From NCBI GenBank assembly GCA_929200405.1, contig CAKMZF010000001.1, positions 1-46,870 of the forward strand: a stretch of DNA of 46,870 bases. The letters run 5' to 3'. The position numbers and the translations under genes are program-made. Of this stretch, positions 786-24,822 are shown in pieces. Under the pieces are notes generated by a model that ran no database searches, was not told where the DNA came from, and saw only the letters and a list, made by a program, of their open reading frames with translations. This DNA comes from an uncultured Gammaproteobacteria bacterium (GTDB lineage: Bacteria; Pseudomonadota; Gammaproteobacteria; Cardiobacteriales; CAKMZF01). The first letter of the stretch is position 1, and the number at the start of each line of letters is the position of its first letter.

Positions 786-2516
786 GTGATTAAAAAAAAT
801 CATAATACAGAACGTAATGTAAGAGTATTCCCATCGGAGCTGTTGAATGGGAGTTGGTTATTTGGCAGGTTTGAGGGGCATTTTGAAAGAGCCGGAGACC
901 AAATAAGGGTTGTTAGAGGGGTTATTCATTCGTCTCACTTTACCAAACAGCCTCCAATTGCGACTGCAGATGACATTATTCAAAGTACTCTTCCTTTAGC
1001 ATGGGTTGAATTTGCTGCTGATGCTTCTATGCGAACTAAGGAAAATAAAGTTCAATCGGTTGTTTTGCATGATTTGGTTTTCAGCGAATGCCAATTAGAA
1101 GATTTAAAAGTTGTTAGTGGTGTATCTTATGGCCATATTCATGCCGTTGTGTGGGCCAAATGCCAGCCATCTAGTGGTAGTAAGGCAAGTTTTTCGGCAA
1201 CTGTTGATGAGAAGAATTCTCCAGTAAACTCTAGAGCTGTGGGGAAGTTAAAACAACTACTCTCTAATAAACAAAGTAGTCCATGGTTGTTGTTACCTTT
1301 ACTTTTATTTCTGTTGTTAGCTAATTTGTTTAGCTCTGATAGTGCTCTTAACTTTAACCCAAAAGACGATTTGCGCCGAGTCTTTTCGCCTTTGCTACCA
1401 GTCAATGATGGATTGGTTCAGAGTAAAGAAAATGATAAATCAAATAGCGATATAAGCATTGATGAGAATAAAAATAGCCTAGCAAATTTGGCAGATATTC
1501 CTGTGAATGGTTGGCTGCTAAGTTGTGATCAGAGTTTAAAGCTAAAATCTGAAGTCTTGTTTGAGTTTGGTCGAGCGAATTTACTGCCTGAAGCATCTGA
1601 GACATTAAAGAGTACAGGGTCAGTCTTTGAAAAAATAAGGTTAGATGGCACAATCGTCAAAATTACTGGTCATACCGATTCTTATGGGGAGCAAGATTAC
1701 AATTTGAAGCTCAGTTGGCGGCGAGCAGAAGCAATTGCAGATTGGTATATTCAACAAGGTCTGATGACCAAAAGTCAGGTGCTAATTCAAGGCAAAGGCG
1801 AGTTCGAGTTGATCATCAATGGTTCAAAATCTAAAGATGAGCAGTCTGAAAACAGACGAGTGGAAATATCACTGGTTTGCGACCGAAACAAACCTATTAC
1901 TGTGACGGAACGTCCTATTGCTTATTTTGCATTATTAGAGGAGATAAGGCGTCAATACGATATTGTGTTCTTGTCAGAAATTACTCCAACGCAAGATCCT
2001 GAGTTAGTGAGCGATCTTGACTCTAAACTAATGTTGTTAAGCCCGTTTAAGGGCATTGTGTTGGAAGAGGCTTTAGTAGAGCCGGAAATATTTTTCAATT
2101 CCTGCGGTAGGCCATTATTGTTGAGCTCAGATCTGCTGTTTGATTATAGTCGTGCAGGTTTGAAGGTTAGCGCATTGAAAGAGCTAAACCTTATCGCACA
2201 ATTACTCAAAGAATCTACTGACTCTAGCTTACGATTAAAAATAATTGGTCATACGGACTCGCATGGTAATGATCAATTTAATTTGCGACTGAGTTATAGA
2301 CGGGCGAACCGAGTCGCTAGATGGTTAGTAGAAAATGATTTGATCAAGAAAGATCATCTGGTTATTGAAGGCAGAGGAGAAAAGGATTTGATGGCGCCTG
2401 CCACTGGCTCTATTGAGGAGCAGAATATTAATCGAAGGGTAGAGATTACGGTGATATGTTCTTCTAAAAAGTTAGAGCTAAAAAGGATGAAAAATGCATC
2501 GACAGAAACTGAATAA
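786..2516 (+). CDS. Single-pass membrane protein with N-terminal domain of unknown function and two tandem OmpA-like C-terminal (peptidoglycan-binding) domains
   Basis: TM WLLLPLLLFLLLANLF; two copies of LF(E/D)(F/Y)...GHTDSxG...NLxLSxRRA...GxGE...NRRVEI. Confidence 0.9.
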   Translation: MIKKNHNTERNVRVFPSELLNGSWLFGRFEGHFERAGDQIRVVRGVIHSSHFTKQPPIATADDIIQSTLPLAWVEFAADASMRTKENKVQSVVLHDLVFSECQLEDLKVVSGVSYGHIHAVVWAKCQPSSGSKASFSATVDEKNSPVNSRAVGKLKQLLSNKQSSPWLLLPLLLFLLLANLFSSDSALNFNPKDDLRRVFSPLLPVNDGLVQSKENDKSNSDISIDENKNSLANLADIPVNGWLLSCDQSLKLKSEVLFEFGRANLLPEASETLKSTGSVFEKIRLDGTIVKITGHTDSYGEQDYNLKLSWRRAEAIADWYIQQGLMTKSQVLIQGKGEFELIINGSKSKDEQSENRRVEISLVCDRNKPITVTERPIAYFALLEEIRRQYDIVFLSEITPTQDPELVSDLDSKLMLLSPFKGIVLEEALVEPEIFFNSCGRPLLLSSDLLFDYSRAGLKVSALKELNLIAQLLKESTDSSLRLKIIGHTDSHGNDQFNLRLSYRRANRVARWLVENDLIKKDHLVIEGRGEKDLMAPATGSIEEQNINRRVEITVICSSKKLELKRMKNASTETE

Positions 2517-2985
2517 GATTAGGCAGACGTTCTTACCTGGCTTAAACGTGCATCAAATCACCTCTACAAAGCAGCGCTTTAATGGTGGGTATTTGGTGTT
2601 GGTACATTGTTATTTGACTGGTCTGGGTTATATAAAACTGCAAGATGTTAGACGTTTTATCATTGGCACAAAGCAGGTCTCGTTATTGGTGAAAGATCAG
2701 CAGTCGGAATTACACGTTTATTCATTGACCGGTAAAGAAATATATTCGATTGGGAAAATAGGCGATAGTTTTATTGACAGTTTACATGAGGTATCTACTC
2801 CTCAAATGAAATTGTCAGTTGATATTATAGAGGTTGTAATACCAAAAATTAGCGTAGGGCATCTAAGTCAGTTTTCCGGTGAAAAGTTGGTGGTGCCGAA
2901 TTTTTGTCGTTTTAATATCCAGACTAAGTTAAGCCAAGCAAAGCCTAAGCTTATTCGAATAAACCCCATTGAATTTAAAATTTAA
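2494..2985 (+). CDS. Hypothetical protein (163 aa, soluble)
   Basis: AAGGA RBS before ATG; overlaps the upstream gene end and stops 14 nt before the next ORF; no recognisable motif. Confidence 0.65.
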   Translation: MHRQKLNKIRQTFLPGLNVHQITSTKQRFNGGYLVLVHCYLTGLGYIKLQDVRRFIIGTKQVSLLVKDQQSELHVYSLTGKEIYSIGKIGDSFIDSLHEVSTPQMKLSVDIIEVVIPKISVGHLSQFSGEKLVVPNFCRFNIQTKLSQAKPKLIRINPIEFKI

Positions 2986-2999
2986 GAGATGAGAAGTAA

Positions 3000-4337
3000 G
3001 TGAGTGTGGAGAAAAATATGCCGAATACACAAAATGAAGTGAAAACACAAAAGAGTAAACATGATGCCGGTGATAATTATGACTATGGCTCCCTAAAAGA
3101 CGTTTCCTGGTTTAGCCGGTTATTATGGTTTTCTGCTGGTGCAGATGCACAGTTACTGATGCGATGCCCTATGTCCGATAGAGTCAAATATCAAGGTCTA
3201 GGTGGCGTGGTTTTATCGGTTGGCATGCTAGCTTTTTTCTCTGGCTCATATGCGTTTTATGCTGTATTTTCACCCAAGGATGCTACGGTTTTGGGCGATT
3301 CATCTACTGATATATCAACAGTCGTACTATCGATTATATTCGGTATATTCTGGGCGATGATTATCTATAATCTAGACCGTTTTATTGTCTCTAGTACTGG
3401 TAAAGGTGATGGCACTGATCGTATAACCCTTACTGAATTTTTAAATGCTTTGCCGCGATTGCTTATGGCTCTGATTATTGGCCTCTGCTTAAGTAAGCCG
3501 TTAGAGATTAAGATTTTAGAATCAGAAATTAAAGCACAATTAGAACTAGAGCAGAATACTTATCTGCAAGAGCTAAATGAGCAAAGTGAGCAACTGGTTA
3601 CATCGCAACGCGCTCAGTTAAGAGAGAAGATGGATGAGCTGCAAAGCAGGATTGATGAAAGTGACAAGTTACTGGAAGATCGCCGTTTAGAAATCAACCA
3701 ACAGCGAAAAAATTTAGAGCTAGAAGCCGAGGGTAAAATAGGCTCTGGTTTTGCTGGTAGAGGCCCAGCTTGGCAAGATAAAAAAGATAACCTAGATAGA
3801 ATGCAGAGTGAGCTAGACCGAGACAGGTCTGCTATCCAGAAAACTAATCAATTAGTAATGGATGAGTTTAACGAGACCAAGCAGCAATTATCTGAACTAG
3901 ATCAAAAATTGTTAAACAAACAAGAGTCGAATAAACAATCCGCTAGGCACTTAGATGGCTTACTTAAAAGAATTCAAATTTCACATGAGATTGGTGGCTG
4001 GGTACCTTACGCCATCATGCTTTTGTTGCTGTGTATTGAGGCGGGCCCTATCTTCTTTAAGCTCATGCTGACTAAAGGCGCATATGACTATTTAGAAGAG
4101 AATCAGAAAAAGCTAGCTTGTGCTTCTATGGGTATAGAACCCAATGCGCATATTGTCTCAGATGACAAGGGTAATCCTTCTTTTGTCGACGAATATCACT
4201 CAGTAAAACATGCCCTATATGAGACAAAACTCAAGGTAGAAACCGAGCAAATGCTGGCAAATCAAGTTCATAATTCGTATCGGCAAAAGGTAAGCGAAGA
4301 TATCAGTGCTAACCCAGAAAAATATATAGAGTCATAG
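3000..4337 (+). CDS. DUF4407-family membrane protein (3 TM + long coiled coil + TM); start possibly ATG 3018
   Basis: LWFSAGAD..LL..CP..DRVKY.GLG, WAMIIYNLDRFIVSS, LPRLLMA..IG..LSKPLEIKI..SEI, GxGPAW in a Q/E/K/L-rich coiled coil, DGLLKRI, IEAGPIFFKL. Confidence 0.85.
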   Translation: MSVEKNMPNTQNEVKTQKSKHDAGDNYDYGSLKDVSWFSRLLWFSAGADAQLLMRCPMSDRVKYQGLGGVVLSVGMLAFFSGSYAFYAVFSPKDATVLGDSSTDISTVVLSIIFGIFWAMIIYNLDRFIVSSTGKGDGTDRITLTEFLNALPRLLMALIIGLCLSKPLEIKILESEIKAQLELEQNTYLQELNEQSEQLVTSQRAQLREKMDELQSRIDESDKLLEDRRLEINQQRKNLELEAEGKIGSGFAGRGPAWQDKKDNLDRMQSELDRDRSAIQKTNQLVMDEFNETKQQLSELDQKLLNKQESNKQSARHLDGLLKRIQISHEIGGWVPYAIMLLLLCIEAGPIFFKLMLTKGAYDYLEENQKKLACASMGIEPNAHIVSDDKGNPSFVDEYHSVKHALYETKLKVETEQMLANQVHNSYRQKVSEDISANPEKYIES

Positions 4338-4379
4338 CGTGTATAGCTGAGGAGAGCTTGAGATATAGAGCTGCTTGTA

Positions 4380-6632
4380 ATGAAGAAAAATGACAAGTCG
4401 AACAAGAGACAGAGTGATCAGTTGGATTTTTATGACTACTTAGTTCTCTGCTCCGGCTTTGATCGGAAGATTATCGCTCAGTTGCCGGAAAAGGGACAGA
4501 GAAGAATTAAGTATATAGTAGTGGCGACAATGCTCTCTGCTATTTATGGGGGGAGCTCTATTGTCTATGGTGCAGTTATTATCAAAGCGCCGATCTATGT
4601 TTGTTTTCTTTTGCTAATTCCCTGTTGTCTGTTTTGTTTAAATATCTTCCGGATGTTGAATGCGGGTAGTGGCTTCCATATGGGCCTAGATGGTGACTTA
4701 CTGCAAACATGGAAGCCCTCTCTATCCTCACAAATCTTTCTTTATATTCTAGGGTTGTTACTAACCGTCCCTGGGTCAATCTTTATCTTCTCAATTGTTC
4801 ATTTAGATATCGGACTAGGCTTAATAGAGCAAATGCAAGAGATGTGGCAGCACAAAATACAAGCGGTTGCAGTCACTCTGTTTAGCACATCGTTATTTTG
4901 TGCTTTTTCTTGGCTCAGAGCCTTCTTTATTTGGGAGATGAGAGACTATGAGTTGCTTCGTTGGTTTGAGGCTCGTGATCTAGTGGGAGCAGCATCGGAT
5001 CAGTCGAAAAAGTATTTAGCCGAATCGATAAAGCAATTTGGTCAATCTAAACCACAAGCAAAACGTCATTATCTCGATGAACCCTATAATTATCGTTTGA
5101 TGCTTTTTGGACATGAGGCAGGCAAAGTTGAAAAGAGCGAATTTGTTAGCATAGAGTCGGTTAAAGAAGAGTCAGTAAAAGAGGCGATATTTATTGAAAC
5201 GACCGAACATTATTATCGTAATTTTTTCAAGGCTCCAAGCAGTAACGAAGTGACGGACCTGCAAGTAGAAACGCTATTTGATCGAACTGTTGAAGCATTT
5301 TTGTTAGACCCAGCATTTACTCACAATGTAAAAAGCGTGGCTGGATATATAGGTCTGCAACAGCAGTCAATTGAGAAAAAGCTTTTTTATTCCGATTGCA
5401 GTGTAATTGTAAAAGACCTCTTTAAATTTGACCTAGAGAACAGGTCAATATTTCAAAGTGTGACTTTATTGGGAAAAAACCAACGCCCAGATAAAGTTCC
5501 AATTCAAATTTCTGCCAGAAAATTTACTTTACACACACCTGAATTATTGAGTTGCTATAACTGTGATCAATCTCTTTCGATAATCAACTCAAGTGTAGGA
5601 GAAGTTGGCTTTTGCGCGAGTTGTCATGGATATCTATTCTCAGAAACTAGCCTTCAAGCGCTCTATGGTCAGCGTATATTGAAAAAGAATTGGCAAGATA
5701 AGCAATTCACGTTTTACAAAGGTTATATTGAGCAACACTGTTTCAACGATTGCAAGTCACCGATGAATCAATATCAACTGAATTCATCGAATCCGAACTT
5801 TACCCCGAGCCGAAATAATATCTCTATTTTGCGCTGTCCTCAATGTTCGCTGTACTGGTTTGATGAAGGCCAGATTAAAGGGCTACTTGAGCTAACGCAG
5901 TATGAAAATTTGGCCCAACAAGAGGCCAATCAAAACGCCGGAGGCACAACCACTTATATTGCTCAATTGCTGACAGGTTTGCCTTTTAAGGTATACAATC
6001 CAGTAAAAAAAATTCCAACGGTATTGGTTAGTTTACTCCTCGTTATGGGCGTTATTTTCTTGCTACAACAAAGTGTAGATAAAGGGGTAAGTTTTGTTTT
6101 TCTACTATACCCAGACCAAGTTCTCTATAAACCGTGGGCATTAATAAGCAGTGCATTTATGCATGCCAATCTTTTTCACCTAGCCGGTAATGGCATTATG
6201 TTATGGCTATTTGGTGACAATATAGAAGATAAATATGGTTGGAAAACATTTCTACTGATCTTCTTGCTTTCTGCCATTGTTGGAAACCTTGTTCATGTCG
6301 CTGCAAATTTTGGCTCTAGTATAGGCTGCTTAGGCGCTTCTGGAGGTGTGTATGGAATTATGGCGGCCTACCTTGTATTTTTCAAATCCAGCAAAGTTTG
6401 GTGGGTGGTATTATTTGTTAGAGTCAAAGTTAGCCTTGTCTTGTTTTTACTATTTAGGATAGGAGTGGATATTTATGGACTACTATTTAGTATCGAGAAT
6501 ATTGCATGGTTTGCCCACATTGGAGGTTTTTTGACAGGGTTATGCATTGGTTATTTAGTTAAAAATCAGACTCTAAAAAATTGGCAAACTCTGGCAAGAA
6601 TCGCAAAAACTAAAAAGATTATATCGAAATAA
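4380..6632 (+). CDS. Fusion protein: divergent DUF4407-like membrane module + two zf-TFIIB-like zinc ribbons + rhomboid intramembrane serine protease
   Basis: Rhomboid motifs FMHANLFHLAGN, FGDNIEDKYG, GASGG (Ser654), AHIGG (His713); CYNC/CASCHG and CFNDC/CPQCSLYWFDEGQ zinc ribbons; N-terminus aligns by eye with the upstream DUF4407 protein. Confidence 0.85.
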   Translation: MKKNDKSNKRQSDQLDFYDYLVLCSGFDRKIIAQLPEKGQRRIKYIVVATMLSAIYGGSSIVYGAVIIKAPIYVCFLLLIPCCLFCLNIFRMLNAGSGFHMGLDGDLLQTWKPSLSSQIFLYILGLLLTVPGSIFIFSIVHLDIGLGLIEQMQEMWQHKIQAVAVTLFSTSLFCAFSWLRAFFIWEMRDYELLRWFEARDLVGAASDQSKKYLAESIKQFGQSKPQAKRHYLDEPYNYRLMLFGHEAGKVEKSEFVSIESVKEESVKEAIFIETTEHYYRNFFKAPSSNEVTDLQVETLFDRTVEAFLLDPAFTHNVKSVAGYIGLQQQSIEKKLFYSDCSVIVKDLFKFDLENRSIFQSVTLLGKNQRPDKVPIQISARKFTLHTPELLSCYNCDQSLSIINSSVGEVGFCASCHGYLFSETSLQALYGQRILKKNWQDKQFTFYKGYIEQHCFNDCKSPMNQYQLNSSNPNFTPSRNNISILRCPQCSLYWFDEGQIKGLLELTQYENLAQQEANQNAGGTTTYIAQLLTGLPFKVYNPVKKIPTVLVSLLLVMGVIFLLQQSVDKGVSFVFLLYPDQVLYKPWALISSAFMHANLFHLAGNGIMLWLFGDNIEDKYGWKTFLLIFLLSAIVGNLVHVAANFGSSIGCLGASGGVYGIMAAYLVFFKSSKVWWVVLFVRVKVSLVLFLLFRIGVDIYGLLFSIENIAWFAHIGGFLTGLCIGYLVKNQTLKNWQTLARIAKTKKIISK

Positions 6633-10104: not shown

Positions 10105-10341
10105 TTTTCACCATCGGTGAGTTAGAGGGCATAGTTCTATAGCATAGGGTGGAGAGATTTCGCATATAGTTAGGTTTTTTATTTTTAGGGGTATTGTACC
10201 TGTAAAAGTGTTATATCGTCTTCTTAAGGTGTTGCTGGAAATAACATCGTTACTTTCTGCAACTCTGCGACGGTTCTGCGCGCTAGGCTGGTTATGGTAA
10301 GTGTCGTAGTGGGAAAACTGCAGAATAAAATGTAATTGTGA

Positions 10342-10370
10342 TTGAGAATAAAAGTTGACTAAGGTATGCT
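10342..10370 (+). promoter_or_regulatory. Putative sigma70 promoter of tRNA-Arg
   Basis: TTGAGA-17 nt-TATGCT ending 16 nt upstream of the tRNA. Confidence 0.5.
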
Positions 10371-10386
10371 TTGCATCCTTCCAAAA

Positions 10387-10463
10387 CCACCCGTAGCTCA
10401 GCTGGATAGAGCGTTGCCCTCCGGAGGCAAAGGTCAGGGGTTCGAATCCCTTCGGGTGGGCCA
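10387..10463 (+). tRNA. tRNA-Arg(CCG)
   Basis: 77 nt; acceptor stem CCACCCG/CGGGTGG, D arm GCTC-AGCTGGATA-GAGC, anticodon loop CT-CCG-GA, T loop TTCGAAT, encoded CCA. Confidence 0.97.
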
Positions 10464-10547
10464 GTTCTACAATATCATTCTCTGCTAAAGCACTCTCTTG
10501 CACACTGTGCTATTGAGTCTCTATAGTCTTCGTTAGGTAGCGAAAAG

Positions 10548-10642: not shown

Positions 10643-12682
10643 TTAGTATTTATACTCAATCTGCAAGCCACCGCCAATGGTTGAATCATCACTGCGCAAA
10701 TCTGTGGTGATAAAACCGCCGATAGTGGTGTTGTTCTTGGCATAACTCAATCCAGCTGAGAGTACAATGCTGTCATCTTTGTTAGAGTTAGGGGTTACTG
10801 TGAAGCCGCCAACACCATTGCTTGGGGTGATTCTCAAACTGCCGTTATCAGCTATAAGATCTCTTTCGTACTTAGCTTCGCCCCAAAGGTTCACACCGTG
10901 ACCTTTGATTTCGGTGTCAATGGATGAGCGAACACCAATAGCAGCTTGTGCAGAAGTATGTTCAATATCTCCATAGCTAACTCCAGTATAATCAGTGCCA
11001 GACTCTGCGTATCCATCCACAGTGGTCTTGTGGTAATCAACCTGTGCGAAAGGCGTTATTTCCCAGTTGGAGCTATTCTTAACGTTAGTCCCTACCTCGA
11101 TAGTAACTCCTAAGTCTTTGCCTTTGGTGTTACCTTTATTTGACTTAACTGCCGATAAAATTTCAACCTTTCTTTCAACTGAGTCATAATCTTGGAAGTT
11201 AGCACTAGCTATACCACTAATATAAACTTTGCCAACATTGGTTTTTGCAAATACATTCAGTGAGAGGTTATTGCCTTCGAAGCTTGTACCAGTGCGACCT
11301 GCTGTTGAGACGTCAACGCTGTTATAACCTAGTGCTGCACCAGCTTCTAGTTTGTCAGAGAAAACTTTTACGGCACCAATCGTAGCACCGAGTATTTTCT
11401 GATTAGAAGTTTCACTTTGCTCATAGCGCAAGTCTGAGATTATTGCATCGCTGCGATTACCTTTGTGATGACGCTCTCTAAGTTCTTGGGTAATAACATC
11501 CGCTTGCATGCGCGCAGGTGTCGCGGCAAATTCGGCAACTTGAGTCGCTGAATCGCTAGCTTCTATGGTGCTTTGGATGAGCTGTGCCGCTGCGGTGGAG
11601 CCTGCAATGGTGGGATGGATGCCATCATTGAATAAAAGTGAAAACGGGCTAGGGGTGCCAGTAGTGGTGTTGAAACCTCGATCAGCGTCTTCAACACAAT
11701 AGATCTGAGGTAGATCTTGAGCGTTATAGCATGCCGCTGACTGATCAATATTTGCCAAACCAAATTCAGTTGGATTGGCAACCATATCAGCAAAAAAAGA
11801 ATTGAAATCGGGCATAATCACATTGCCGCCGATAGCATTTAATTTCTCTGCCAGCGAGGCATTGTAAGCATTAGTAGCATTGGTTCTTGCGGCGATAAAA
11901 TCAGCAGCACTGCCACCTGCCGCTTGTACTATTCCTGCTTGCAAAGAGGTTTCAGGAATATCTCCAATATCGGGCAGGTTGGGTACAATTACCAGTCCTG
12001 CACCCGCATCTGTCATTGCTGCGGCTCCTCGTGAAGTGAAGTCAGCAGCAGTGATCATATTTGTATTTATTGTATCAGTATCCATGATAGTGAATCCCGT
12101 TGGAACTGGAGCTGTGGGGTCAGTTCTATCGAAATCAACGATTGCTGAAGCTCGGATATCATTGCCACCCGAGCTAATTACAACAATAGCATTGGTCGCT
12201 TGGGAAGCATTGTCTCCCGCTAAGAAACCATCATTAACAACTGCGGGTACTGTAGTATCTGCGTTTAAAGCAACTGGAGGGGTTACTGCACCACCTGGAG
12301 CAACAATAGAGTTATAAACATTCTCAGCTAGGTAACCTCCAACGGCATAGTTGTATCCAGATGTTGGTCCAGGAATGGCACCAAAAGTGGCTGGCTGAGA
12401 GGGGCCTAAATTACTAAAACCTAAATTGGTTCCCAAAATTGTTGGGTAAGGATTCATATAATAACCATCGGAGCTACGATTGGTAAATCTTAGACGAGAA
12501 TCAGTTGGTACGCCCTCTATCCCGAGTAATGCGCCGGGGTCTATAAACTGCCCACCGTCTGCCAAGCTATCGCCAAATATGATCATATTGCTATAAGCTT
12601 GTGCTGAACTATGAGTGGCGGCTGTGCCGGCCAGTAGCGCACCTATGCTTAGAGTGAGTATTTTTTTCGTGAACACTTTCAT
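10643..12682 (-). CDS. GDSL/SGNH esterase autotransporter (EstA-like)
   Basis: Signal peptide; FGDSLAD, NYAVGG, GGND, FNDGIHPT blocks; C-terminal beta-barrel ending LQIEYKY; AGGAG RBS. Confidence 0.9.
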   Translation of the reverse strand: MKVFTKKILTLSIGALLAGTAATHSSAQAYSNMIIFGDSLADGGQFIDPGALLGIEGVPTDSRLRFTNRSSDGYYMNPYPTILGTNLGFSNLGPSQPATFGAIPGPTSGYNYAVGGYLAENVYNSIVAPGGAVTPPVALNADTTVPAVVNDGFLAGDNASQATNAIVVISSGGNDIRASAIVDFDRTDPTAPVPTGFTIMDTDTINTNMITAADFTSRGAAAMTDAGAGLVIVPNLPDIGDIPETSLQAGIVQAAGGSAADFIAARTNATNAYNASLAEKLNAIGGNVIMPDFNSFFADMVANPTEFGLANIDQSAACYNAQDLPQIYCVEDADRGFNTTTGTPSPFSLLFNDGIHPTIAGSTAAAQLIQSTIEASDSATQVAEFAATPARMQADVITQELRERHHKGNRSDAIISDLRYEQSETSNQKILGATIGAVKVFSDKLEAGAALGYNSVDVSTAGRTGTSFEGNNLSLNVFAKTNVGKVYISGIASANFQDYDSVERKVEILSAVKSNKGNTKGKDLGVTIEVGTNVKNSSNWEITPFAQVDYHKTTVDGYAESGTDYTGVSYGDIEHTSAQAAIGVRSSIDTEIKGHGVNLWGEAKYERDLIADNGSLRITPSNGVGGFTVTPNSNKDDSIVLSAGLSYAKNNTTIGGFITTDLRSDDSTIGGGLQIEYKY

Positions 12683-14909: not shown

Positions 14910-15944
14910 TTACTCTCCATATCCCTCTGGTAAGTTCAGCGCAGGCTGACCACGCAGATGTTTGAGTCTGGCAAATACATCAAAACCCATTTGTTTTAAC
15001 ATGTGAATAATATCAATTGGCACCCAGTTTTCGGCGATTCTTCCATCTACGAGATGGTAAAAGTCCATTACGCGCATTTGTATAACTTTGCCAGTCGCTG
15101 GCATGCCAAGCCATTCGCCTAGATGTGTGCCTGTCACAGAGGGCCAGCCCCCTGTGACAACGTAATCACCGTCACCAATTCTGACATAGTGGCCGCTGCC
15201 TTGACGATCAGGAAAGCCTACTAAGAAGGGGATTTGATGGTGGGCACGAAATCCGGACATGCTGCGTGTGGTACCAATTCCTGCCGGACCATACCAAAGG
15301 AAATTGTCTGTCCAATATTGTTGGTGTTGCATGCTATTTAAATCTTTGCCATCGAAGCTGAGAAGGGCATTGTGCATGGCAATCACGGTATTAAATGCGC
15401 TATCGCCTTGTGCTGGTTCACTGCTGTTGAGTCTAACGCCATCATGAGTAGCAGGGTGCTGCCACATGCCTTCGGCACCTAGAGAGGGCATTAATGGCCA
15501 GACGTTGGCTTGTCGCATTAAATCTAGTAGATCAAAAAGCACATATGAGTGTGCGATTTTGCCATCCACTATTGAATGTACTTCACAACTACGCAAGGTG
15601 ACTACGCCTTTTGTTGCTGGAATGCCACAGAGATCTTGCTGAAAAGTGCCTTGGTAACAGCCCATACTGGCAACTAAGATTCTACCAGTTAATGCTTCTG
15701 ATACGCGGTTATCGGCTTTGCTTTCGCCTACGACAAATATGCTATCTCGGCGCTCCATATCGGGTAGGGCTGTTCTGAGTTGCTGCCAGATTGCAGAAAT
15801 GTCAGTATGGCCTTGCACTTCATTAAAAGGGTGGCAGCCCCACCATTGAGCATCGCTATGGTAGCAGTTACTGACGTCGCCATCTTTGCTAAGCTGGTGT
15901 AGTTGTTGGTAAGTTTGTTGCTTTATTTGAGTGAAATCAGTCAC
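14910..15944 (-). CDS. Two-domain SnoaL-like (ester cyclase/NTF2 fold) protein
   Basis: LPDMERRD, GIPATKG, WYGPAGIGT, HQIPFL..FPDR, GTHLGEWLGMPATGK, MDFY..DGRIAENW. Confidence 0.85.
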   Translation of the reverse strand: MTDFTQIKQQTYQQLHQLSKDGDVSNCYHSDAQWWGCHPFNEVQGHTDISAIWQQLRTALPDMERRDSIFVVGESKADNRVSEALTGRILVASMGCYQGTFQQDLCGIPATKGVVTLRSCEVHSIVDGKIAHSYVLFDLLDLMRQANVWPLMPSLGAEGMWQHPATHDGVRLNSSEPAQGDSAFNTVIAMHNALLSFDGKDLNSMQHQQYWTDNFLWYGPAGIGTTRSMSGFRAHHQIPFLVGFPDRQGSGHYVRIGDGDYVVTGGWPSVTGTHLGEWLGMPATGKVIQMRVMDFYHLVDGRIAENWVPIDIIHMLKQMGFDVFARLKHLRGQPALNLPEGYGE

Positions 15945-16031
15945 GATATTGAGTGCTCCATAGCTCTGGGGTTACTAAAAATCCCGCTTTTTTGATGCGC
16001 GGCATTCTATCTCAAAAAATTTTGAGAAACA

Positions 16032-16051
16032 GTTTGCATTCGTATGCAAAC
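16032..16051. promoter_or_regulatory. Putative LacI-family operator in the divergent promoter region
   Basis: GTTTGCATTCGTATGCAAAC: 20-bp palindrome with one mismatched pair and a central CG, typical of LacI/GalR operators. Confidence 0.7.
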
Positions 16052-16261
16052 GATGGCAAGATATTTCTACTCGTTTTTTAATTGCAATATTATAAAGATT
16101 GATTTACGAAAGATATCTTTTATAAATATTCATAAACACTAAAAATAAGCGTGGACTTTTTATAAGGTAGATTTTAGAGGCTATTTGGCGCTAATCATCT
16201 GAATAGCCTTATCATTGAATTGCAAAGAGTTACGTAATGAAAAGCAGGAATTGGGAGTAGT

Positions 16262-17317
16262 ATGGCTGAGATCAATCTAAAAGGTATCTGTAAACGCTGG
16301 GGAAGTTTTGTCGGCGTACATGACTTTAATCTCAAGATTGCTGATCGAGAATTTTTGGTATTGCTTGGACCGTCTGGCTGTGGCAAAACCACCACAATGC
16401 GCATGATTGCTGGCCTTGAAGATATAACCGAGGGTGAGATAACGATTGACGGTAAAGTTGTGAATAACTTAGAGCCTAAAGATCGCGATATAGCTATGGT
16501 GTTTCAGTCCTATGGTTTATATCCGAATATGAATGTTTATGAAAATATTCGGTTTCCGCTCAAAGTTCGCAAAATAGACCCTGCTACCCATGATGAGAAA
16601 GTAATGAAAGCTGCGGAGCGCTCTGAGCTTGTTGACTTCTTACACCGCAAACCAGCTGAGTTATCCGGTGGACAGCGCCAAAGAGTGGCACTTGCCAGAG
16701 CGATTGTTCGCGAGCCGAGTGTGTTTTTGATGGATGAGCCGCTATCTAACCTGGATGCTAAGTTAAGGGTCTCCACTCGTGCACAGATTAAGAATCTTCA
16801 GCATGAGCTAAAAGTAACCACTATTTACGTCACCCATGATCAAATTGAGGCCATGACTTTGGCAGATCGTGTTGTGGTGATGAAAAAAGGTTTAATACAA
16901 CAGGTTGGTGTGCCAACAGAAATATATGACAAACCTGCCAATGCGTTTGTGGCAAGTTTTATCGGTTCTCCGGCTATGAATTTGTTGGAGGGGGAAATAT
17001 CTGATGGCACTTTTACTGGCAAGAATGTATCGGTGTCGGGTTTCCCCAAAACGCTTAGCGGCAAAATTACTTTAGGTTTCCGTGCTGAGGATGCCACAAT
17101 TAATGCAACGGAGTCTGCGGAAGTGAATTCAGCTGTGTATAGTTTTGAGCTACTGGGGGATGCTACCATGGTAAATGTAAAAGCAGGTGGCGCGTTAATT
17201 TCAGTAAAAGCGGAAAAAACCTTTAGGGCGGGGATTGGAGAGAATGTTTCTATTTCAGTTCCTGTAGATATCTGCCATTTATTCTCAGCGGAGGATGGCA
17301 TGAGAGTTGAGTTCTAA
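16262..17317 (+). CDS. CUT1 carbohydrate ABC transporter ATP-binding protein (MalK/UgpC-like)
   Basis: GPSGCGKTT, LSGGQRQRVALARA, MDEPLSNLDAKLR, YVTHDQIEAMT, FIGSPAMN. Confidence 0.95.
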   Translation: MAEINLKGICKRWGSFVGVHDFNLKIADREFLVLLGPSGCGKTTTMRMIAGLEDITEGEITIDGKVVNNLEPKDRDIAMVFQSYGLYPNMNVYENIRFPLKVRKIDPATHDEKVMKAAERSELVDFLHRKPAELSGGQRQRVALARAIVREPSVFLMDEPLSNLDAKLRVSTRAQIKNLQHELKVTTIYVTHDQIEAMTLADRVVVMKKGLIQQVGVPTEIYDKPANAFVASFIGSPAMNLLEGEISDGTFTGKNVSVSGFPKTLSGKITLGFRAEDATINATESAEVNSAVYSFELLGDATMVNVKAGGALISVKAEKTFRAGIGENVSISVPVDICHLFSAEDGMRVEF

Positions 17318-17401
17318 GACTCAATTTCCACTCGGCTTTAGCCGATAATAATAGAGTGTCGTAAGGCAATTGTAATACTAGCAAAAACTAGGGAGAGAAT
17401 A

Positions 17402-18631
17402 ATGATTTTTAAAAAAGCGCTATTGGCTGGTGCCGTAATGATGGCTTCCACGCTTACTTATGCAGAATGTAAGGTTGATGGTGGTAGAGTGAGCATTGTC
17501 GGCAATGAATTTCCAGCCATTCATACAGTAGCGAATGTAGCAGTAGCTTGTGAAGGTATTGATGGAAAATCTAACCTAACAGCAGACCATCAGAAAATAA
17601 ATGTTGCGGGTATGCAAGGCAATCCTGCGGAATATACATCGGCAATTATCGCTAACTCATCTATCGTTGCTTTGATGAACGAAGATGTGATTCGTCCACT
17701 AAACGATTTGGTGGAAAAATATGGGCAGGATATTCCTAAGAAACAGTTGATTACTATCGATGGCGATGTCATGGCAGTTGCCTTTATGGCGAATGCACAG
17801 CACCTAGTATACCGAGCTGATGTACTAGAGCAGATTGGCGTTGAAGTGCCAAAAACTTATGAAGACTTATTGGCTGCCGCAAAGCTTATTCGTGAGAAAG
17901 GCATTATGGACAACCCCGTAGGCGGCGCTTACAAAGCAGGTTGGAATCTAGGTGAAGAGTTTGTCAATATGTATTTAGGATTTGGCGGACAGTTCTATAA
18001 AGCAGGCAGTGCAGAAGTCTCTGTGAATAATGAGCAGGGTGTTGCGACACTGGAAATGTTGAAGTCATTAACCGAGTACATGAATCCAGATTATTTAACC
18101 CATGACTCAAATGCGACCAATGCTGAGTGGGAAGCAGGTAATGTTGCGCTAATGAATATGTGGGGTTCACGTGTAGGCTCAATATTGGATGATGAAGGTT
18201 CTACACCAGAGATTGTTGCTGCTACTAAAGTAGCTGGGCCTATGGCAGTAGGTGGCGGAAGCCAGCCAGCCTCTACACTATGGTGGGATGGATGGACTGT
18301 TGCGAAAAATATCTCTGATGAAGATGCCGCAGCAACATTCCAAGCTCTGGCACATGCAACTAGTGCTGCTATCTTAAATGATGAAACCATGGGGCAAGCT
18401 GTTTGGATGATAGATGGTTATAAGCCAGCAGCTGTCAACGAAGGGGTGTTTGCTGCTATTGATGCGAAAACCACGCCTTATCCAATGCTGCCTTATCAAG
18501 GCTTATTGCACACAGTTTTGGGTGACAATGTTGCAGACTTCCTACAGGGGAAAGAGAGTGCTGAGCAAACCCTCAAAGATATTGAGGCAGCTTACACAGC
18601 AGCAGCTAAAGAAAAAGGCTTCTTAAAGTAA
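17402..18631 (+). CDS. CUT1 ABC transporter periplasmic solute-binding protein
   Basis: Signal peptide, LVYRADVLEQ.G.EVPKTYEDL..AA, G.VALM.MW; position within the ABC operon. Confidence 0.9.
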   Translation: MIFKKALLAGAVMMASTLTYAECKVDGGRVSIVGNEFPAIHTVANVAVACEGIDGKSNLTADHQKINVAGMQGNPAEYTSAIIANSSIVALMNEDVIRPLNDLVEKYGQDIPKKQLITIDGDVMAVAFMANAQHLVYRADVLEQIGVEVPKTYEDLLAAAKLIREKGIMDNPVGGAYKAGWNLGEEFVNMYLGFGGQFYKAGSAEVSVNNEQGVATLEMLKSLTEYMNPDYLTHDSNATNAEWEAGNVALMNMWGSRVGSILDDEGSTPEIVAATKVAGPMAVGGGSQPASTLWWDGWTVAKNISDEDAAATFQALAHATSAAILNDETMGQAVWMIDGYKPAAVNEGVFAAIDAKTTPYPMLPYQGLLHTVLGDNVADFLQGKESAEQTLKDIEAAYTAAAKEKGFLK

Positions 18632-18642
18632 GTCAATTTCAA

Positions 18643-18667
18643 GGACGTTAAATTAACTTTAACGTCC
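18643..18667 (+). other. Intercistronic stem-loop after the SBP gene (mRNA stabiliser or partial terminator)
   Basis: GGACGTTAAA-TTAAC-TTTAACGTCC, perfect 10-bp stem, no U-tract. Confidence 0.55.
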
Positions 18668-18748
18668 CTCGATTATGAAATGTTGACTGCGTAATGTTTT
18701 GTCAGATGCTGAAATTTTCCTTCACACACTAATTGGTTAGATAGCGAT

Positions 18749-19771
18749 ATGACTCATAAATCTTTTTTCTGGTTTGTTCTACCATCCAGCTTAGCCATGC
18801 TATTGTTTATTTTCTTTCCGATTGTATCCGTCATTGTACAATCGCTGCATGTTGACCATGAGCAGGTGATTGTTAGTGTTGAAAACTGCGACTTATTTGG
18901 TTGCACTGAGTCGACTAAAATAGATCAAGAAGCAACAGAAGCGCTAAGAGCAGAGCAACCACTGGGGAGATTTGCAGGATTAACGACCTATTTTGACCGT
19001 AATCATTTAGCCACAGCAGAACTGAAAGAGAGTTGGGAAACCGCAGATAATTGGCGAGATTTCGGTAGCCAATTATTAAATCTTCCGTTTTATAAAGCGA
19101 TTGGCTTTACCTTAGCCTTTACTTTTGTCGTCACCCCACTGGTAATTATGTTGGGCTTTGCGATAGCGGTAGCAGTCAACAGTGCAGCCAAGGTGTTGCG
19201 TGGACCACTGATATTTTTCTCATTATTGCCAATGATGGTAACTCCTTTAATTGGTTCACTGATTTTATTTTGGATGATTGATGCTCGAGGGGTGATTGGC
19301 ACCCTGCTGCAATACCTAGCAGGGGACCCTGAGTTATCGATAAAAGCCTCAACTCCATTGATGTGGATTATGTTGATGGTTTATGGGGTTTGGCATGCAG
19401 CACCTTTTGCGTTCATTGTTTATTACGCAGGTCTTCAAACAGTGAATAGTGAAACACTAGAGGCCGCACAGATTGATGGTGCGAGCCGTTGGGAGCAGAT
19501 TCGTTATGTTGTGATTCCACATTTACTGCCATTGACAACTTTTATTGCATTGATGCAACTAATGGATAACTTCCGAGTGTTTGAACCCATTGTCAGTTTT
19601 GCGGCGAGTGCACACGCCACCTCTTTGTCATGGGCTATATATAACGATCTAGGCGGAGAGACCCGACAATTATCCTCAGCGGCAGCGACCTCAGTGCTAA
19701 CAATCCTAGGGGTGGCAATATTACTATTCCCAGTGCTGGTTCGGACTTGGCGTGACTTCAATAAAAAGTAA
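18749..19771 (+). CDS. CUT1 ABC permease (MalF/UgpA-like)
   Basis: Multiple TMs; EAA loop YAGLQTV...LEAAQIDGASRWEQIRYV. Confidence 0.92.
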   Translation: MTHKSFFWFVLPSSLAMLLFIFFPIVSVIVQSLHVDHEQVIVSVENCDLFGCTESTKIDQEATEALRAEQPLGRFAGLTTYFDRNHLATAELKESWETADNWRDFGSQLLNLPFYKAIGFTLAFTFVVTPLVIMLGFAIAVAVNSAAKVLRGPLIFFSLLPMMVTPLIGSLILFWMIDARGVIGTLLQYLAGDPELSIKASTPLMWIMLMVYGVWHAAPFAFIVYYAGLQTVNSETLEAAQIDGASRWEQIRYVVIPHLLPLTTFIALMQLMDNFRVFEPIVSFAASAHATSLSWAIYNDLGGETRQLSSAAATSVLTILGVAILLFPVLVRTWRDFNKK

Positions 19772-19789
19772 TTAGAGAGTAGAAATGGT

Positions 19790-20671
19790 ATGAATACACA
19801 ACCCACAAAAAAGCCTTTTCTGATTCAAACCTTAGTTTTTTCAGTGTTGGTTATCTGGATGGTGCTGGCAGCATTTCCATTTCTATGGACGCTGTGGGGA
19901 TCATTTAAAGTAGAAGGCGATTTTTTCTCCAAAGCAGATTGGCTAAATGTGATATCAGGTAAGCTTACCGAAGTAGAAACAGGTGGCAAGTTTACCGGTG
20001 CTGGTTATGAAGGGGCGTGGATTCAAGAAGAATTTTGGCGTGCCGCGCTAAAGTCCGCCATTGTCTGCGTTTTTGTTGTTACCATCTCCCTGACCTTTGG
20101 CACGCTAGGCGGCTATGCCTTGGCGCGTTCTGGTTATCGCTATGCTTTTTGGTTTCTTATTATTGCCTTGATCTTCCGCGCTATGCCGCCGATTACTTTA
20201 GTTTCAGGCTATCTGCCGGTATTCTTTACCTGGAATTTATGGGGTCACTTAACTACCGCGATTATCGTGTTGGTTGCGATCAACCAGCCATTTACTTTAT
20301 GGATGTTGCATTCTTTCTTTAAAAACATACCTCAAGATCTTGATGAGAGTGCGATGGTAGACGGCTGCACCCGATTTCAAGCATTTAGACATGTCATTAT
20401 CCCAGTAATGTGGCCAGGTGTAGTGACCACTGGACTATTCTCATTTTTATTAGCGTATAACGACTTTGCCGTGACCGCGGTCATTTTGTCTAAAGAAAAC
20501 CAAACGATGATTCCTAAAATTGCCAGCTTTTTAGGTACAACGCAAACTAAAGGGAATGTGATGTTTGCAGTGTCGGCAGTTGTGTCAGCCACAGCGCCAT
20601 TGTTTGTGATGGTAATGGTTTTTCAACGACAGATTGTTTCTGGTCTTACCGCTGGAGCTGTTAAAGGCTAG
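19790..20671 (+). CDS. CUT1 ABC permease (MalG/UgpE-like)
   Basis: GYALAR, FFKNIPQDLDESAMVDG, QRQIVSGLTAGAVKG. Confidence 0.92.
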   Translation: MNTQPTKKPFLIQTLVFSVLVIWMVLAAFPFLWTLWGSFKVEGDFFSKADWLNVISGKLTEVETGGKFTGAGYEGAWIQEEFWRAALKSAIVCVFVVTISLTFGTLGGYALARSGYRYAFWFLIIALIFRAMPPITLVSGYLPVFFTWNLWGHLTTAIIVLVAINQPFTLWMLHSFFKNIPQDLDESAMVDGCTRFQAFRHVIIPVMWPGVVTTGLFSFLLAYNDFAVTAVILSKENQTMIPKIASFLGTTQTKGNVMFAVSAVVSATAPLFVMVMVFQRQIVSGLTAGAVKG

Positions 20672-20851
20672 TCAATAGAGCTATAGAACAGCCGCAAGAT
20701 TTTCAAGCGATGCAGTTTGGTCTAAATGGTTCAACTGTATAACAACAGACAACTAGAAAACGCACCGATTTAAGCTCTGCTAATTGGTGGGATATCTACT
20801 GCCTAGAACGGCTATTTATTAGCGTAGTATTGTAAACATTGGAGTCTATTT

Positions 20852-21394
20852 ATGAAAGGTTCGCGCCCTGAGCAGGCATATCTCTCTAAAGATACGGATA
20901 TATCAAAAACTGAGGATACTCGACGAGTTATTGAGAGCATGGTTGATGGGTTAAATGACCATCGTATTACAGATATTGGTGAATTTTTTTCTGAGCAGTT
21001 TCGTTGGATGGGAAACCAAGGCTGCGGGACTAAAAATGGTTTGCGAGAATTTCAAGATAATTGGCAAAGGCCTTTTCAGGCAGCTTTCTCAGATAAGGTT
21101 TGCATAGATGAAGCGCGATTATATATGGGGGAGTGGGCGGCTGCATTTGGTCGTCAAGAAGCCATACACAGTGGTGAGTTTATGGGGGTTTCCGCTACCG
21201 GTAAAAAAGTGGAAATTCGCTATATGGATTTTTGGAAGGTGGTTGATGGGAAAATTGTTGATAATTGGGTCTCGGTCGATTTTCCGCATGTGCTCTCGCA
21301 GCTAGGAGTGGATGTGTTTAATGGGAAGGGCTGGGAAACCTATGACTGTGGAGATGCCATTGCGCCCGAACCTCAGACTAACGTGCCTGAATAG
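20852..21394 (+). CDS. Single-domain SnoaL-like (ester cyclase) protein
   Basis: [34 protein letters not shown]. Confidence 0.88.
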
Positions 21395-21444
21395 GACGAT
21401 ACAAAACAGATGTAATAGAATTTCAGGTTTTTCAGGAGTTTCCT

Positions 21445-22782
21445 ATGATTAGATATTTAAAGACCGCAAAGAGTGCGGCCGAAAGAAATGAAGATGATGC
21501 CAAAGTACGGGCAATCGTTGAGAGCACGTTGGCTGAGATTGAGCAGCAGGGCGATCAAAAAGTAAGAGCACTTTCTGAGCAGTTTGATGGCTTGAGCAGA
21601 GAGTCTTACCGACTGAGTGAAGAGGAGATAGCACAGGCTATGTCTGAGGTATCTGAGCAGGAACTGGCTGATATCAAATTTGCTCAGGATCAAATTCGTA
21701 ACTTCGCAGAGCATCAAAAAGCGTCGATGTTAGATGTAGAGGTCGAGACTTTGCCTGGAGTGATTTTAGGCCACAAAAATATTCCTGTGAACTCGGTGGG
21801 CTGCTATGTTCCTGGAGGAAAATTCCCGATGGTTGCCTCTGCGCATATGAGCGTCTTAACAGCAAAGGTGGCAGGAGTGAAACGAATTATTGCTGCGGCA
21901 CCACCGTATAAAGGCAAGCCCCATCCGGCCATTGTCACTGCCATGCATTTGGCTGGAGCAGATGAGATTTATGTACTGGGTGGAATGCAGGCAGTAGGCG
22001 CTATGGCGCTTGGAACCGAAACTATAGAGTCTGTGGACATGTTGGTCGGACCGGGAAATGCTTTTGTAGCTGAGGCAAAACGTCAACTCTATGGCCGTGT
22101 GGGCATTGATCTTTTCGCTGGACCAACTGAAACTATGGTGATCGCAGATCCCGAAGCAGAGGGTGTTGATGGTGAACTCTGTGCCACCGATTTGTTGGGG
22201 CAGGCTGAGCATGGTTATAACTCTCCAGCAGTTTTACTGACTAATTCTGAGCAGCTAGCGCAGGATACGATGGCTGAGATTGAGCGACTATTGCAGATAT
22301 TGCCAACCGCAGAAACCGCAGCTAAGTCTTGGCAGGAATATGGCGAGGTGATTGTTTGTGATACTTATGAGGAGATGCTAGAGCAGGCAGATTTTTATGC
22401 TTCTGAGCATGTTCAGGTAATGACGACGAGAGATGACTGGTTTCTTGAGAATATGACCAGTTACGGAGCGTTGTTTTTAGGCGCTCGCACCAATGTTTCC
22501 TATGGCGATAAAGTGATTGGTACAAATCACACTTTGCCGACCAAAAAAGCAGGGCGTTATACTGGCGGACTGTGGGTGGGCAAATTTATTAAAACCCATT
22601 CATATCAAAAAATAATGACCGATGAGGCGTCTGCTTTGGTGGGGGAATATTGTTCTAGGCTTTGTGCCTTAGAGCACTTTGCAGGGCATGGTGAACAGGC
22701 CAATATAAGAGTTCGTCGCTATGGTGGGGTAGATGTGCCTTATGCAGGTGCTGCGGCAGTTTCTGATGCTTCGAAGCGATAG
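21445..22782 (+). CDS. Histidinol dehydrogenase-family paralogue (HpsN-like Zn/NAD dehydrogenase), probably catabolic
   Basis: [46 protein letters not shown]; no his operon context. Confidence 0.88.
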
Positions 22783-22802
22783 CTTTGCTTTAGGAATATG
22801 CC

Positions 22803-23879: not shown

Positions 23880-23917
23880 ATATCTACATTATTGATTAAT
23901 GAGGCGATGGTACAGAC

Positions 23918-24712
23918 ATGATGGATATGACAGATGCTACAGAGATGGTGGGTTTACCTAAGACACCTTCTTTTCGCTTAGATGGTCGTAGAGCTATAGT
24001 CGCTGGTGCAACCAGTGGGATAGGACTGGGGTGTGCGGTCGCATTAGCCGAGGCAGGTGCCGCGACGACGTTGGTGGCTAGGTCTGAGGATAAACTGTTG
24101 GATATTGTTGAGCAATTAACAGTTGCAGGTTATCAGGCTGATCATTTGGCGTTAGATATTAGCGACGTTGAGTCAGTGCAGACGGCATTGGCTCAGTTGC
24201 CTGCATTTCATGTCTTGGTAAACAGTGCAGGCTTGGCAAGACACAGTCCAGCACTGGACACAGTGGCAGATGATTTTGATGCGGTGATGAACCTAAATGT
24301 TCGTGGCGCTTATTTCCTAACCACCGCGGTGGCAAAAGGCATGAAAGCACAAAATATTGCTGGAAGTATTGTTAATATCTCTAGCCAAATGGCGCATGTC
24401 GGGGGTATTGATAGGGCGGTTTATGCGGCGAGTAAACATGCGGTAGAAGGCATGACTAAATCCATGGCGATTGAGTGGGGGCAGGATAATATTCGGGTAA
24501 ACACCATCTGCCCTACATTTGTACGCACGCCTTTGACGGCAGCAACATTCGAAAATCCCGAGAGATTGGCGTGGATAGAATCCAAAATTAAATTGCCGAG
24601 AGTCGCAGAAGTAGAGGATTTAATGGGGGCGGTGACTTTTATGGCATCTGATGCAGCAGCTATGATTACGGGCACTTCATTATTGGTAGATGGTGGTTGG
24701 ACGGCCGATTGA
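23918..24712 (+). CDS. Short-chain dehydrogenase/reductase
   Basis: GATSGIG, LVNSAG, NISS, YAASK, VDGGW. Confidence 0.93.
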   Translation: MMDMTDATEMVGLPKTPSFRLDGRRAIVAGATSGIGLGCAVALAEAGAATTLVARSEDKLLDIVEQLTVAGYQADHLALDISDVESVQTALAQLPAFHVLVNSAGLARHSPALDTVADDFDAVMNLNVRGAYFLTTAVAKGMKAQNIAGSIVNISSQMAHVGGIDRAVYAASKHAVEGMTKSMAIEWGQDNIRVNTICPTFVRTPLTAATFENPERLAWIESKIKLPRVAEVEDLMGAVTFMASDAAAMITGTSLLVDGGWTAD

Positions 24713-24822
24713 TATCTACCGAGATTTTACGAACGAGCGAATCAACGAATAAACCACTACACAAGCAAAGAGAGCCAATCTCTATTGGTTGGTATAGCGG
24801 AAGAATATTAAGGAAACTTGAG

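Follow-up and report, generated by a model that had tools for sequence, protein, structure and literature searches.

A recurrent four-gene module around a DUF4407 membrane protein, with a rhomboid protease fused to it in few lineages, as a candidate envelope-sensing complex

What might a bacterium gain from packing a wall-anchored OmpA-type protein, a DUF4407 membrane protein and a rhomboid protease into one short gene cluster? The question is raised by a stretch of 46,870 nucleotides (nt) of contig CAKMZF010000001.1 (assembly GCA_929200405.1) from an uncultured member of the Gammaproteobacteria, hereafter called the window. Near its start lie four genes that we label D, A, B and C after their positions in a conserved module and that stand in the window in the order D-A-B-C. 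D and A overlap by 23 nt, A and B are separated by 14 nt and B and C by 42 nt; these spacings, like the coordinates and strands given in an original prediction made from the DNA alone, all match the list of open reading frames (ORFs). The arrangement is far beyond chance because the same arrangement recurs in other genomes. Our preferred answer, to which we give a probability of roughly 45%, is that the genes may encode a hitherto undescribed, peptidoglycan-tethered envelope-sensing complex, built on a hyper-conserved DUF4407 core, with partners that evolve fast and with outputs, the rhomboid among them, that can be exchanged.

The first support comes from the recurrence of the gene set. One genome per species was scanned for B, which yielded 161 confirmed relatives; the best 80 loci were examined, 47 of them with full flanks. 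Their ORFs were searched with the window proteins and with profiles built from first-round matches, and a gene was called C-like when it starts within 400 nt of the stop of B. C-like genes come immediately after B in 66 of the 80 loci (39 of the 47 with full flanks), and a D-like gene stands beside B or C in 63 (41 of the 47). D was recognized by its N-terminal domain in 48 loci (33 with full flanks) and by its OmpA similarity in 39 (27 with full flanks). Both C and D are present in 36 of the full-flank loci, D being located upstream in 16 and downstream in 25, and the gene orders D-A-B-C and A-B-C-D are circular permutations of each other. The set recurs in metagenome-assembled genomes (MAGs) of Gammaproteobacteria, Bacteroidota, Myxococcota, Spirochaetes and Acidobacteriota. 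In most of the 11 full-flank loci that count as incomplete, the C and D positions are taken by unassigned genes of corresponding size, one of which matches Pfam DUF4407 (locus L066). This neighborhood survey bears out the earlier view of the four genes as one unit. In six of the loci scanned for this (L057, L060, L067, L072, L075 and L080) D is followed by a protein of 539-586 amino acids (aa) without known family and by a DUF350 membrane protein, which suggests that Bacteroidota-type operons represent a six-gene form of the module.

The distribution of the module is sporadic. It was found in 0 of 40 genomes of the same order, in 0 of the 299 other genomes of the same class that were scored (one further genome was not scored) and in 8 of 201 sampled genomes of the phylum to which a Myxococcales MAG belongs, that MAG included. 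Still, B of the window is 75% identical to the copy in a Cellvibrionaceae MAG and 68% identical to the copy in a Polaribacter MAG (Bacteroidota). The identity between the window and locus L003 amounts to 75% for B, 36% for D, 35% for C and 31% over 49 aa for A; by such comparisons B is extremely conserved and A, C and D diverge fast. Loci L003 and L004 (the latter from the Polaribacter MAG) are flanked by housekeeping genes such as those for RecJ, threonine synthase, HslUV and diacylglycerol kinase, and no integrase or transposase is present among the flanking proteins scanned. The G+C content of the cluster is 0.38-0.40 versus 0.43-0.46 in the next 10 kb, with further low-G+C stretches along the window. 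Taken together, the sporadic distribution, the high identity of B across phyla, the G+C content and the housekeeping flanks point to a cassette that is complete in itself and is transferred across phyla. Relatives of B were found neither in PLSDB plasmids nor in IMG/VR contigs. Genome comparison indicates that the four genes form a genuine operon, one that is rare and has spread horizontally. In L004, a gene for an RNA 2'-phosphotransferase (Tpt1/KptA, 3.6e-50; 10860-11396) starts 7 nt after C. The window itself holds no ORF of at least 60 aa on either strand at positions 1-785; since the contig begins at window position 1, the true upstream neighbors of the cassette and any border of a mobile element lie outside the sequence.

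The conserved core of the module is B. Its match to Pfam DUF4407 (PF14362) has an E-value of 6.9e-63 and a score of 213 bits, far above the gathering cut-off of 31.3, and 1931 homologues at E≤1e-3 were counted among the candidates scored, many of them 60-75% identical. The AF2 model (mean predicted local distance difference test, pLDDT, 69.7) folds the region between the transmembrane (TM) helices into a hairpin with arms of about 77 residues, or roughly 11 nm. In an alignment of 26 B sequences from several phyla (alignment A1) the hairpin tip (residues 245-261) is invariant, as are many polar residues in or near the TM helices. TM4 follows directly after the hairpin and carries conserved Gly and Pro residues. 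The loop charge bias of B is weaker than that of C, but it agrees with a cytoplasmic N-terminus (N-in), and this weak bias together with the homology to C would place the hairpin in the periplasm. No convincing structural match was found for the model: Foldseek returned nothing from the PDB at E≤0.001, the best VIA wide match (Z 10.8) covers the hairpin alone and lies within the noise range stated for helical models, and a profile search of PDB sequences gave a coiled-coil match only (E 0.003).

The module is a property of B's own subfamily. DUF4407 exceeds the Pfam cut-off in 36 of 151 sampled Bacteroidota-side genomes, and the mainstream Bacteroidota clade (about 365-400 aa) belongs to the same Pfam family as B and follows the same four-TM-plus-hairpin plan. 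In contrast to B's subfamily with its A-B-C-D module, this clade occurs as a singleton, with a C-, D- or A-like neighbor within about 1.4 kb in 0 of 25 loci (L164-L188). The module therefore marks B's subfamily and not all DUF4407 proteins. A lone DUF4407 homologue of 425 aa is further encoded in fifteen records of Lak megaphages; it shares 30-32% identity with B across 73% of its length. In Prevotella phage Lak-A2 (L163, 5962-7239) it is readable only when TAG is translated as Gln, with seven such codons, and its nine neighboring ORFs, read under code 15, include no C-, D- or A-like gene.

The second support comes from a predicted pairing of B and C. The N-terminal module of C gives no Pfam DUF4407 match at E≤0.1 and remains below the gathering score, and a direct BLASTP comparison of B and C yields E 0.003. 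When an alignment of 27 C N-modules (A2) is compared to alignment A1, however, hhalign reports a probability of 97.7% (E 1.9e-12) over 130 columns spanning TM1-TM3, and an Asn/Arg/Gly motif just after TM2 is common to both proteins. C orthologues in four loci reach Pfam DUF4407 unaided, some with 39-41 bits. Hence, of the claim that C carries a paralogous DUF4407 module, the paralogy stands as a remote one and the Pfam assignment falls. Complex prediction was carried out for B (A1) and the C N-module (A2) at a 1:1 ratio, with author-made alignments and three controls. The pair obtains ipSAE interface scores of 0.68, 0.67 and 0.68 against 0.00 for the best control, the runs having at least 54% of contacts in common and a partner pLDDT of at least 70; 116 of 157 solved complexes but only 2 of 215 mismatched pairs reach this mark. 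In the predicted interface the invariant motif after TM2 of C contacts the start of TM1 of B, and the helix after TM4 of C contacts the corresponding helix of B, both being contacts between parts on the same side of the membrane. The prediction supports a pairing of B and C through their four-TM modules, in line with the co-assembly of the two paralogues that had been suggested.

What does the rhomboid add to this pair? The loop charges of C are clearly positive-inside for an N-in four-TM module; its zinc ribbons would therefore be cytoplasmic and its rhomboid core would start N-in, as usual for the family. Pfam Zn_ribbon_TFIIB matches C weakly (2.6e-4, aa 478-503) and Pfam Rhomboid (PF01694) matches strongly (3.2e-29, aa 585-727) on a six-TM core, with PDB chains of GlpG aligning to aa 552-728. 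Rhomboids are featured by a catalytic Ser in a GxSG motif of TM4, a His in TM6 and a His/Asn motif in TM2. Assigned by motif, the corresponding elements of C are GASGG with S654, HIGG with H713, and HANLFH (595-600) followed by N604. S654, H713, H595, H600 and N604 as well as the four cysteines of the zinc ribbon are invariant in all four full-length relatives, at 32-35% identity. The intact Ser-His dyad noted earlier is thus confirmed, and by these alignments the fusion is genuine and the rhomboid looks active.

Nevertheless, the rhomboid is confined to few lineages. Searching residues 1-560 of C with phmmer against 1.84 billion cluster representatives gave 56 proteins at E≤1e-3, which fall into three groups: the window protein with three full-length relatives (730-735 aa), proteins of 250-570 aa matching residues 20-260 only, and proteins of 340-375 aa matching residues 390-560. 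Among the 45 of these that were annotated with Pfam, all three long proteins have a rhomboid, seven short C-terminal matches combine Zn_ribbon_TFIIB and Rhomboid, and four relatives of the N-module have weak to moderate DUF4407 matches (0.005 to 6e-12). Only four fusions with the full architecture including the rhomboid are present among the 1.84 billion representatives. Word-index searches with C residues 1-560 and with the N-module alignment returned the window's own protein only, and a metagenome scan keyed on rhomboid-domain patterns yielded 80 generic rhomboid loci that have no bearing on the fusion lineage. The rhomboid region is matched in 1 of the 80 related loci, in addition to the window and two further protein clusters, and C of the Polaribacter locus keeps the linker and zinc ribbon and has no rhomboid. 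Because of this count and the rhomboid-free Polaribacter protein, the rhomboid appears as an add-on to an older module: a late addition in few lineages and, judged from the sequences compared, not part of the module core. The original prediction, which had put it at the center of the mechanism, cannot be upheld on this point. Indeed, the tail of C may be absent, a region of about 200 aa without known family, a zinc ribbon, or a zinc ribbon plus rhomboid as in the rare lineage of the window. One of the four N-module relatives with DUF4407 matches, P0173 (648 aa), combines the module with a caspase domain (Peptidase_C14, 3.8e-26) and thereby bears a second type of protease. In the window's assembly (91.5% complete), the fused rhomboid is the sole match to the Rhomboid family, while 15 of 20 genomes of the same order encode a stand-alone one of about 200-310 aa; being the only one, it may also serve general duties.

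The wall anchor and the smallest gene complete the module. D matches Pfam OmpA (PF00691) in two stretches with an overall E-value of 7.5e-34 (116 bits), and conserved Asp and Arg residues of this domain's binding motif are apparently present in both copies, as judged by eye. The protein has no signal peptide and a single hydrophobic segment (aa 164-182), and is oriented N-in/C-out (type II). Its TM segment contains no Asp or Glu, and none is conserved there in an alignment of 35 D sequences (A4); it does contain two prolines, and TM prolines are also present in rhomboid-free lineages, for instance L004 and L013. The N-terminal domain, by which an iterated hidden Markov model (HMM) recognizes D in related loci, is modeled by AF2 with five long strands (mean pLDDT 82.6). 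No convincing fold match was found for it, the best values being E 0.07 for Foldseek against the PDB and Z 3.3 for VIA, a profile search of PDB sequences gave nothing and ESM Atlas no usable match; neither PADLOC nor the literature searched offered a model or a functional account of this domain. The periplasmic part of D varies across loci. A has no match in Pfam, NCBIfam or PADLOC and no usable match in ESM Atlas. A small gene (100-210 aa) lies directly upstream of B in most related loci, and an HMM family of these small proteins spans 32 of the 80. The window's A is linked to it by a chain of weak similarities (phmmer 3.5e-6 to L003, 5.5e-6 between L003 and L004, 3e-18 between L004 and the family) and by hhalign (85.6%, E 5.6e-6). 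The features of the cluster are collected in Table 1.

Table 1. Genes and domains of the four-gene cluster (window positions).
Feature	Position	Strand	Description
Gene D	786..2516	+	576 aa, GTG start; cytoplasmic N-domain, single TM segment, two OmpA-like domains in the periplasmic part
D N-domain, aa 22-126	849..1163	+	Family-specific all-beta cytoplasmic domain; iterated HMM, AF2 model
D TM segment, aa 164-182	1275..1331	+	Hydropathy scan
D first OmpA-like peptidoglycan-binding domain, aa 258-357	1557..1856	+	Best stretch of Pfam PF00691
D second OmpA-like domain, about aa 448-557	2127..2456	+	Second Pfam stretch; NCBIfam OmpA-type models at 446-563
Gene A	2494..2985	+	163 aa, small, basic, no TM segment
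Gene B	3000..4337	+	445-aa DUF4407 protein; four TM helices, coiled-coil hairpin, C-terminal alpha/beta domain
B coiled-coil hairpin, aa 167-331	3498..3992	+	AF2 helices 167-243 and 256-331; Gly-rich invariant tip 245-261
Gene C	4380..6632	+	750-aa fusion: DUF4407-like four-TM module, linker, zinc ribbons, rhomboid
C N-module, aa 1-270	4380..5189	+	Remote DUF4407 paralogue without long hairpin; hhalign
C zinc-ribbon region	5553..5846	+	Invariant Cys392, Cys395, Cys412, Cys415; weaker second ribbon at about aa 454-489
C rhomboid core, aa 545-727	6012..6560	+	S654, H713, H595, H600, N604; matches to Pfam and PDB GlpG

Based on these elements we propose a model in which A, B, C and D would build a single inner-membrane complex, with B and C paired via their four-TM modules. 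Both would be oriented N-in, and the 165-residue hairpin of B (about 11 nm) would extend with its invariant tip into the periplasm, beside the wall anchor of D. The complex would read the state of the wall or the periplasm, and the signal might pass through the B-C helix bundle to the C-terminal domain of B, the beta domain of D, A and the tail of C. In the lineage of the window, the tethered rhomboid could then provide a proteolytic output or a processing step. On its substrate we can only speculate: the probable target would be an N-out helix held in the complex, such as TM4 of B with its conserved Gly and Pro, the N-in helix of D being a less likely one; alternatively, the enzyme may clear unassembled subunits.

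Several observations weigh against this model. The Gly and Pro in TM4 of B are invariant both with and without a rhomboid and therefore show no adaptation to cleavage. The topology of B depends on a weak charge bias and on homology. The calibration of the ipSAE mark for the B-C pair holds only roughly because our own alignments were used. In five loci D follows directly after B and C was not detected. Since OmpA similarity is present in D at only 39 of the 80 loci (phmmer), the wall anchor cannot be essential to the family. Membership of the window's A in the small-protein family is weak when scored directly against the profile (E 0.003 with the HMM, for a set of 74 sequences), and scans for promoters and terminators gave counts not above those of shuffled controls.

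The proposed complex shares traits with several known systems. Zorya ZorA/ZorB and the MotA/MotB stators combine a multi-TM subunit with a single-TM partner ending in an OmpA-like wall-binding domain, and B-type stator subunits carry a conserved acidic residue in their single TM helix. Similarly, the module pairs a multi-TM coiled-coil subunit with a single-TM OmpA partner, and the PADLOC model of ZorB matches the OmpA part of D with 7.3e-27. However, B and C have no MotA_ExbB or ZorA domain, ZorC and ZorD are lacking, the TM helix of D has no acidic residue and D, unlike MotB and ZorB, carries a cytoplasmic beta domain of about 120 aa. The coiled coil of B moreover is a hairpin between TM helices, presumably in the periplasm, instead of a cytoplasmic tail. 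Zorya membership was rejected, as the ZorB match is restricted to the OmpA region of D and no Zor model matches A, B or C; a 5:2 motor of the MotAB, TolQR or ExbBD type was likewise rejected, given the lack of MotA_ExbB on B and C and of an acidic residue in the D helix. More generally, PADLOC-DB v2 gave no match for A or C, coiled-coil-type matches only for B (E≥9e-4) and only the OmpA part of ZorB for D. The view that this is not a named system thus holds, in that no PADLOC model corresponds to it and the literature found by full-text search for DUF4407/PF14362, supplements not searched, offers table mentions only and no functional account.

The assemblies HflK/HflC-FtsH, SPFH-NfeD and SLP2-PARL join a scaffold to a protease. 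With these, the module has in common a paralogous pair, coiled coils on the outer face and a membrane protease, the latter in some lineages only; it differs by the lack of SPFH/Band_7 and NfeD domains, by the four TM helices of B and C and by the covalent fusion of the protease. An SPFH/Band 7 scaffold with NfeD was rejected, no such Pfam domain being present on the four proteins at E≤0.1. Stand-alone zinc-ribbon-rhomboids (340-375 aa) resemble C in residues 390-560 and in the rhomboid core, including the same catalytic motifs, whereas in C the unit forms the end of a fusion and is preceded by a four-TM module of DUF4407 type and a linker of 200 aa. GlpG and Rhom7 are rhomboids whose targets are metastable helices with proline in the subunits of complexes (PMC7232013), and YqgP carries a regulatory cytosolic N-terminal domain (PMC7231995). 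C likewise ends in a bacterial rhomboid; yet the enzymes named are not tethered to a partner and their targets are N-out helices in unrelated complexes, while the rhomboid of C is tethered to one complex.

A bolder version of the proposed model is that of a novel trans-envelope alarm. The tip of B, next to its wall-anchored partner, would sense a breach or remodeling of the envelope by phages, predators or lytic enzymes, and interchangeable cytoplasmic or intramembrane outputs on the paralogue, such as a rhomboid in the window and a caspase-like domain or one without known family elsewhere, would respond. We consider this version doubtful; if true, it would represent an immune or stress system without homology to Zorya or any catalogued defense system.

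Similarly doubtful is an anti-phage or abortive infection system, Zorya-like in its logic only, in which B would be a membrane-damaging effector, D, C and A would be sensors or adaptors and the tails accessory effectors. In its favor are the sporadic distribution crossing phyla, the presence of one highly conserved subunit whose partners diverge rapidly, and variable protease tails on the C-paralogues (rhomboid, or caspase in P0173), as are the invariant polar residues in and near the TM helices of B, the KptA/Tpt1 gene directly after C in L004 and the DUF4407 homologue of the Lak megaphages. Neither A, B nor C has a PADLOC match beyond coiled-coil noise, however, and an identity of 60-75% across phyla, as for B, is unusually high for an immune gene. 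Relatives on the plasmids and viral contigs searched are lacking as well. The flanks consist mostly of housekeeping genes, and the suggested enrichment in defense islands was not seen: in 12 of the 80 loci, considered without a genome-wide baseline, 4 of 106 flanking proteins match PADLOC models at E≤1e-8, and these four include an HslU-like ATPase encoded beside HslV. In short, a conflict system would agree with the sporadic distribution and with the variability of the protease tails, but not with the neighborhoods. In the portion of the literature covered, no work on anti-phage defense naming a rhomboid in its title or abstract was found.

An improbable explanation is a scaffold with an attached protease for membrane-protein quality control, in which a periplasmic coiled-coil assembly of B and C would enclose or regulate the protease and its clients. 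B and C are indeed paralogous and predicted to form a heterodimer, the long coiled coil probably lies on the periplasmic side and the protease is joined to one of the paralogues. In addition, bacterial rhomboids are described as carrying out quality control of orphan subunits (PMC7232013) and as able to act together with FtsH (PMC7231995), and the fused enzyme is the only rhomboid of its 91.5%-complete genome, where 15 of 20 relatives have a stand-alone one. Against this, the Band_7/SPFH and NfeD domains are missing, most lineages have the module without a protease, and a role in general housekeeping is made less likely by the sporadic distribution.

The mechanism put forward in the original prediction, a sensor of defense or envelope damage in which the two DUF4407 paralogues would hold the rhomboid in place for cleavage of D in its proline-containing TM helix, has a slim chance. 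The rhomboid is intact and attached to a subunit for which binding to B is predicted, D alone among the four proteins is single-pass and its TM helix holds two prolines, and Star, a type II protein, has been discussed as a rhomboid substrate (PMC2941825). That source discusses such an exception only for a recognition motif distant from the helix, and bacterial rhomboids prefer helices with a periplasmic N-terminus, i.e., N-out/C-in (PMC7232013), opposite to D. Furthermore, 79 of the 80 related loci keep B, C and D without a rhomboid, the TM prolines persist in rhomboid-free lineages and no defense-island signal was seen in the 12 loci examined (4 of 106 flanking proteins). With the wrong orientation and prolines that are not rhomboid-specific, D loses its place as the obvious substrate; cleavage of the OmpA protein by the rhomboid is unlikely and cannot be the core function of the family. 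That the four genes are unrelated neighbors without common function is next to negligible: uninformative promoter and terminator scans would allow it, but the gene set recurs in two circularly permuted orders across five groups, stops and starts overlap or nearly touch, and the co-occurrence counts already contradict it.

Elsewhere in the window, five ORFs with SnoaL-like domains, three of them with two copies of the domain, are located at 14910-25797 among a histidinol-dehydrogenase-like gene, a short-chain dehydrogenase/reductase, an amidohydrolase, a LacI regulator and a sugar-type ATP-binding cassette transporter; this region looks like an uncharacterized catabolic cluster. A 131-aa ORF without Pfam match (10108-10503, reverse strand) overlaps tRNA-Arg(CCG) at 10387-10463 on the forward strand and is probably not a gene.

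In summary, the window places DUF4407, a widespread family without assigned function, in its first concrete context, namely a fixed four-gene module. With it come a remote paralogue as the predicted second member of a heteromer, a wall-anchored companion that carries a new beta domain, and interchangeable tails, so that a hitherto anonymous family can be studied as a machine open to tests. Few natural substrates of bacterial rhomboids are known, and the enzyme of the window is physically linked to a small number of candidate partners. Should the module turn out to sound an alarm at the envelope or to act in immunity, its mechanism would be new.

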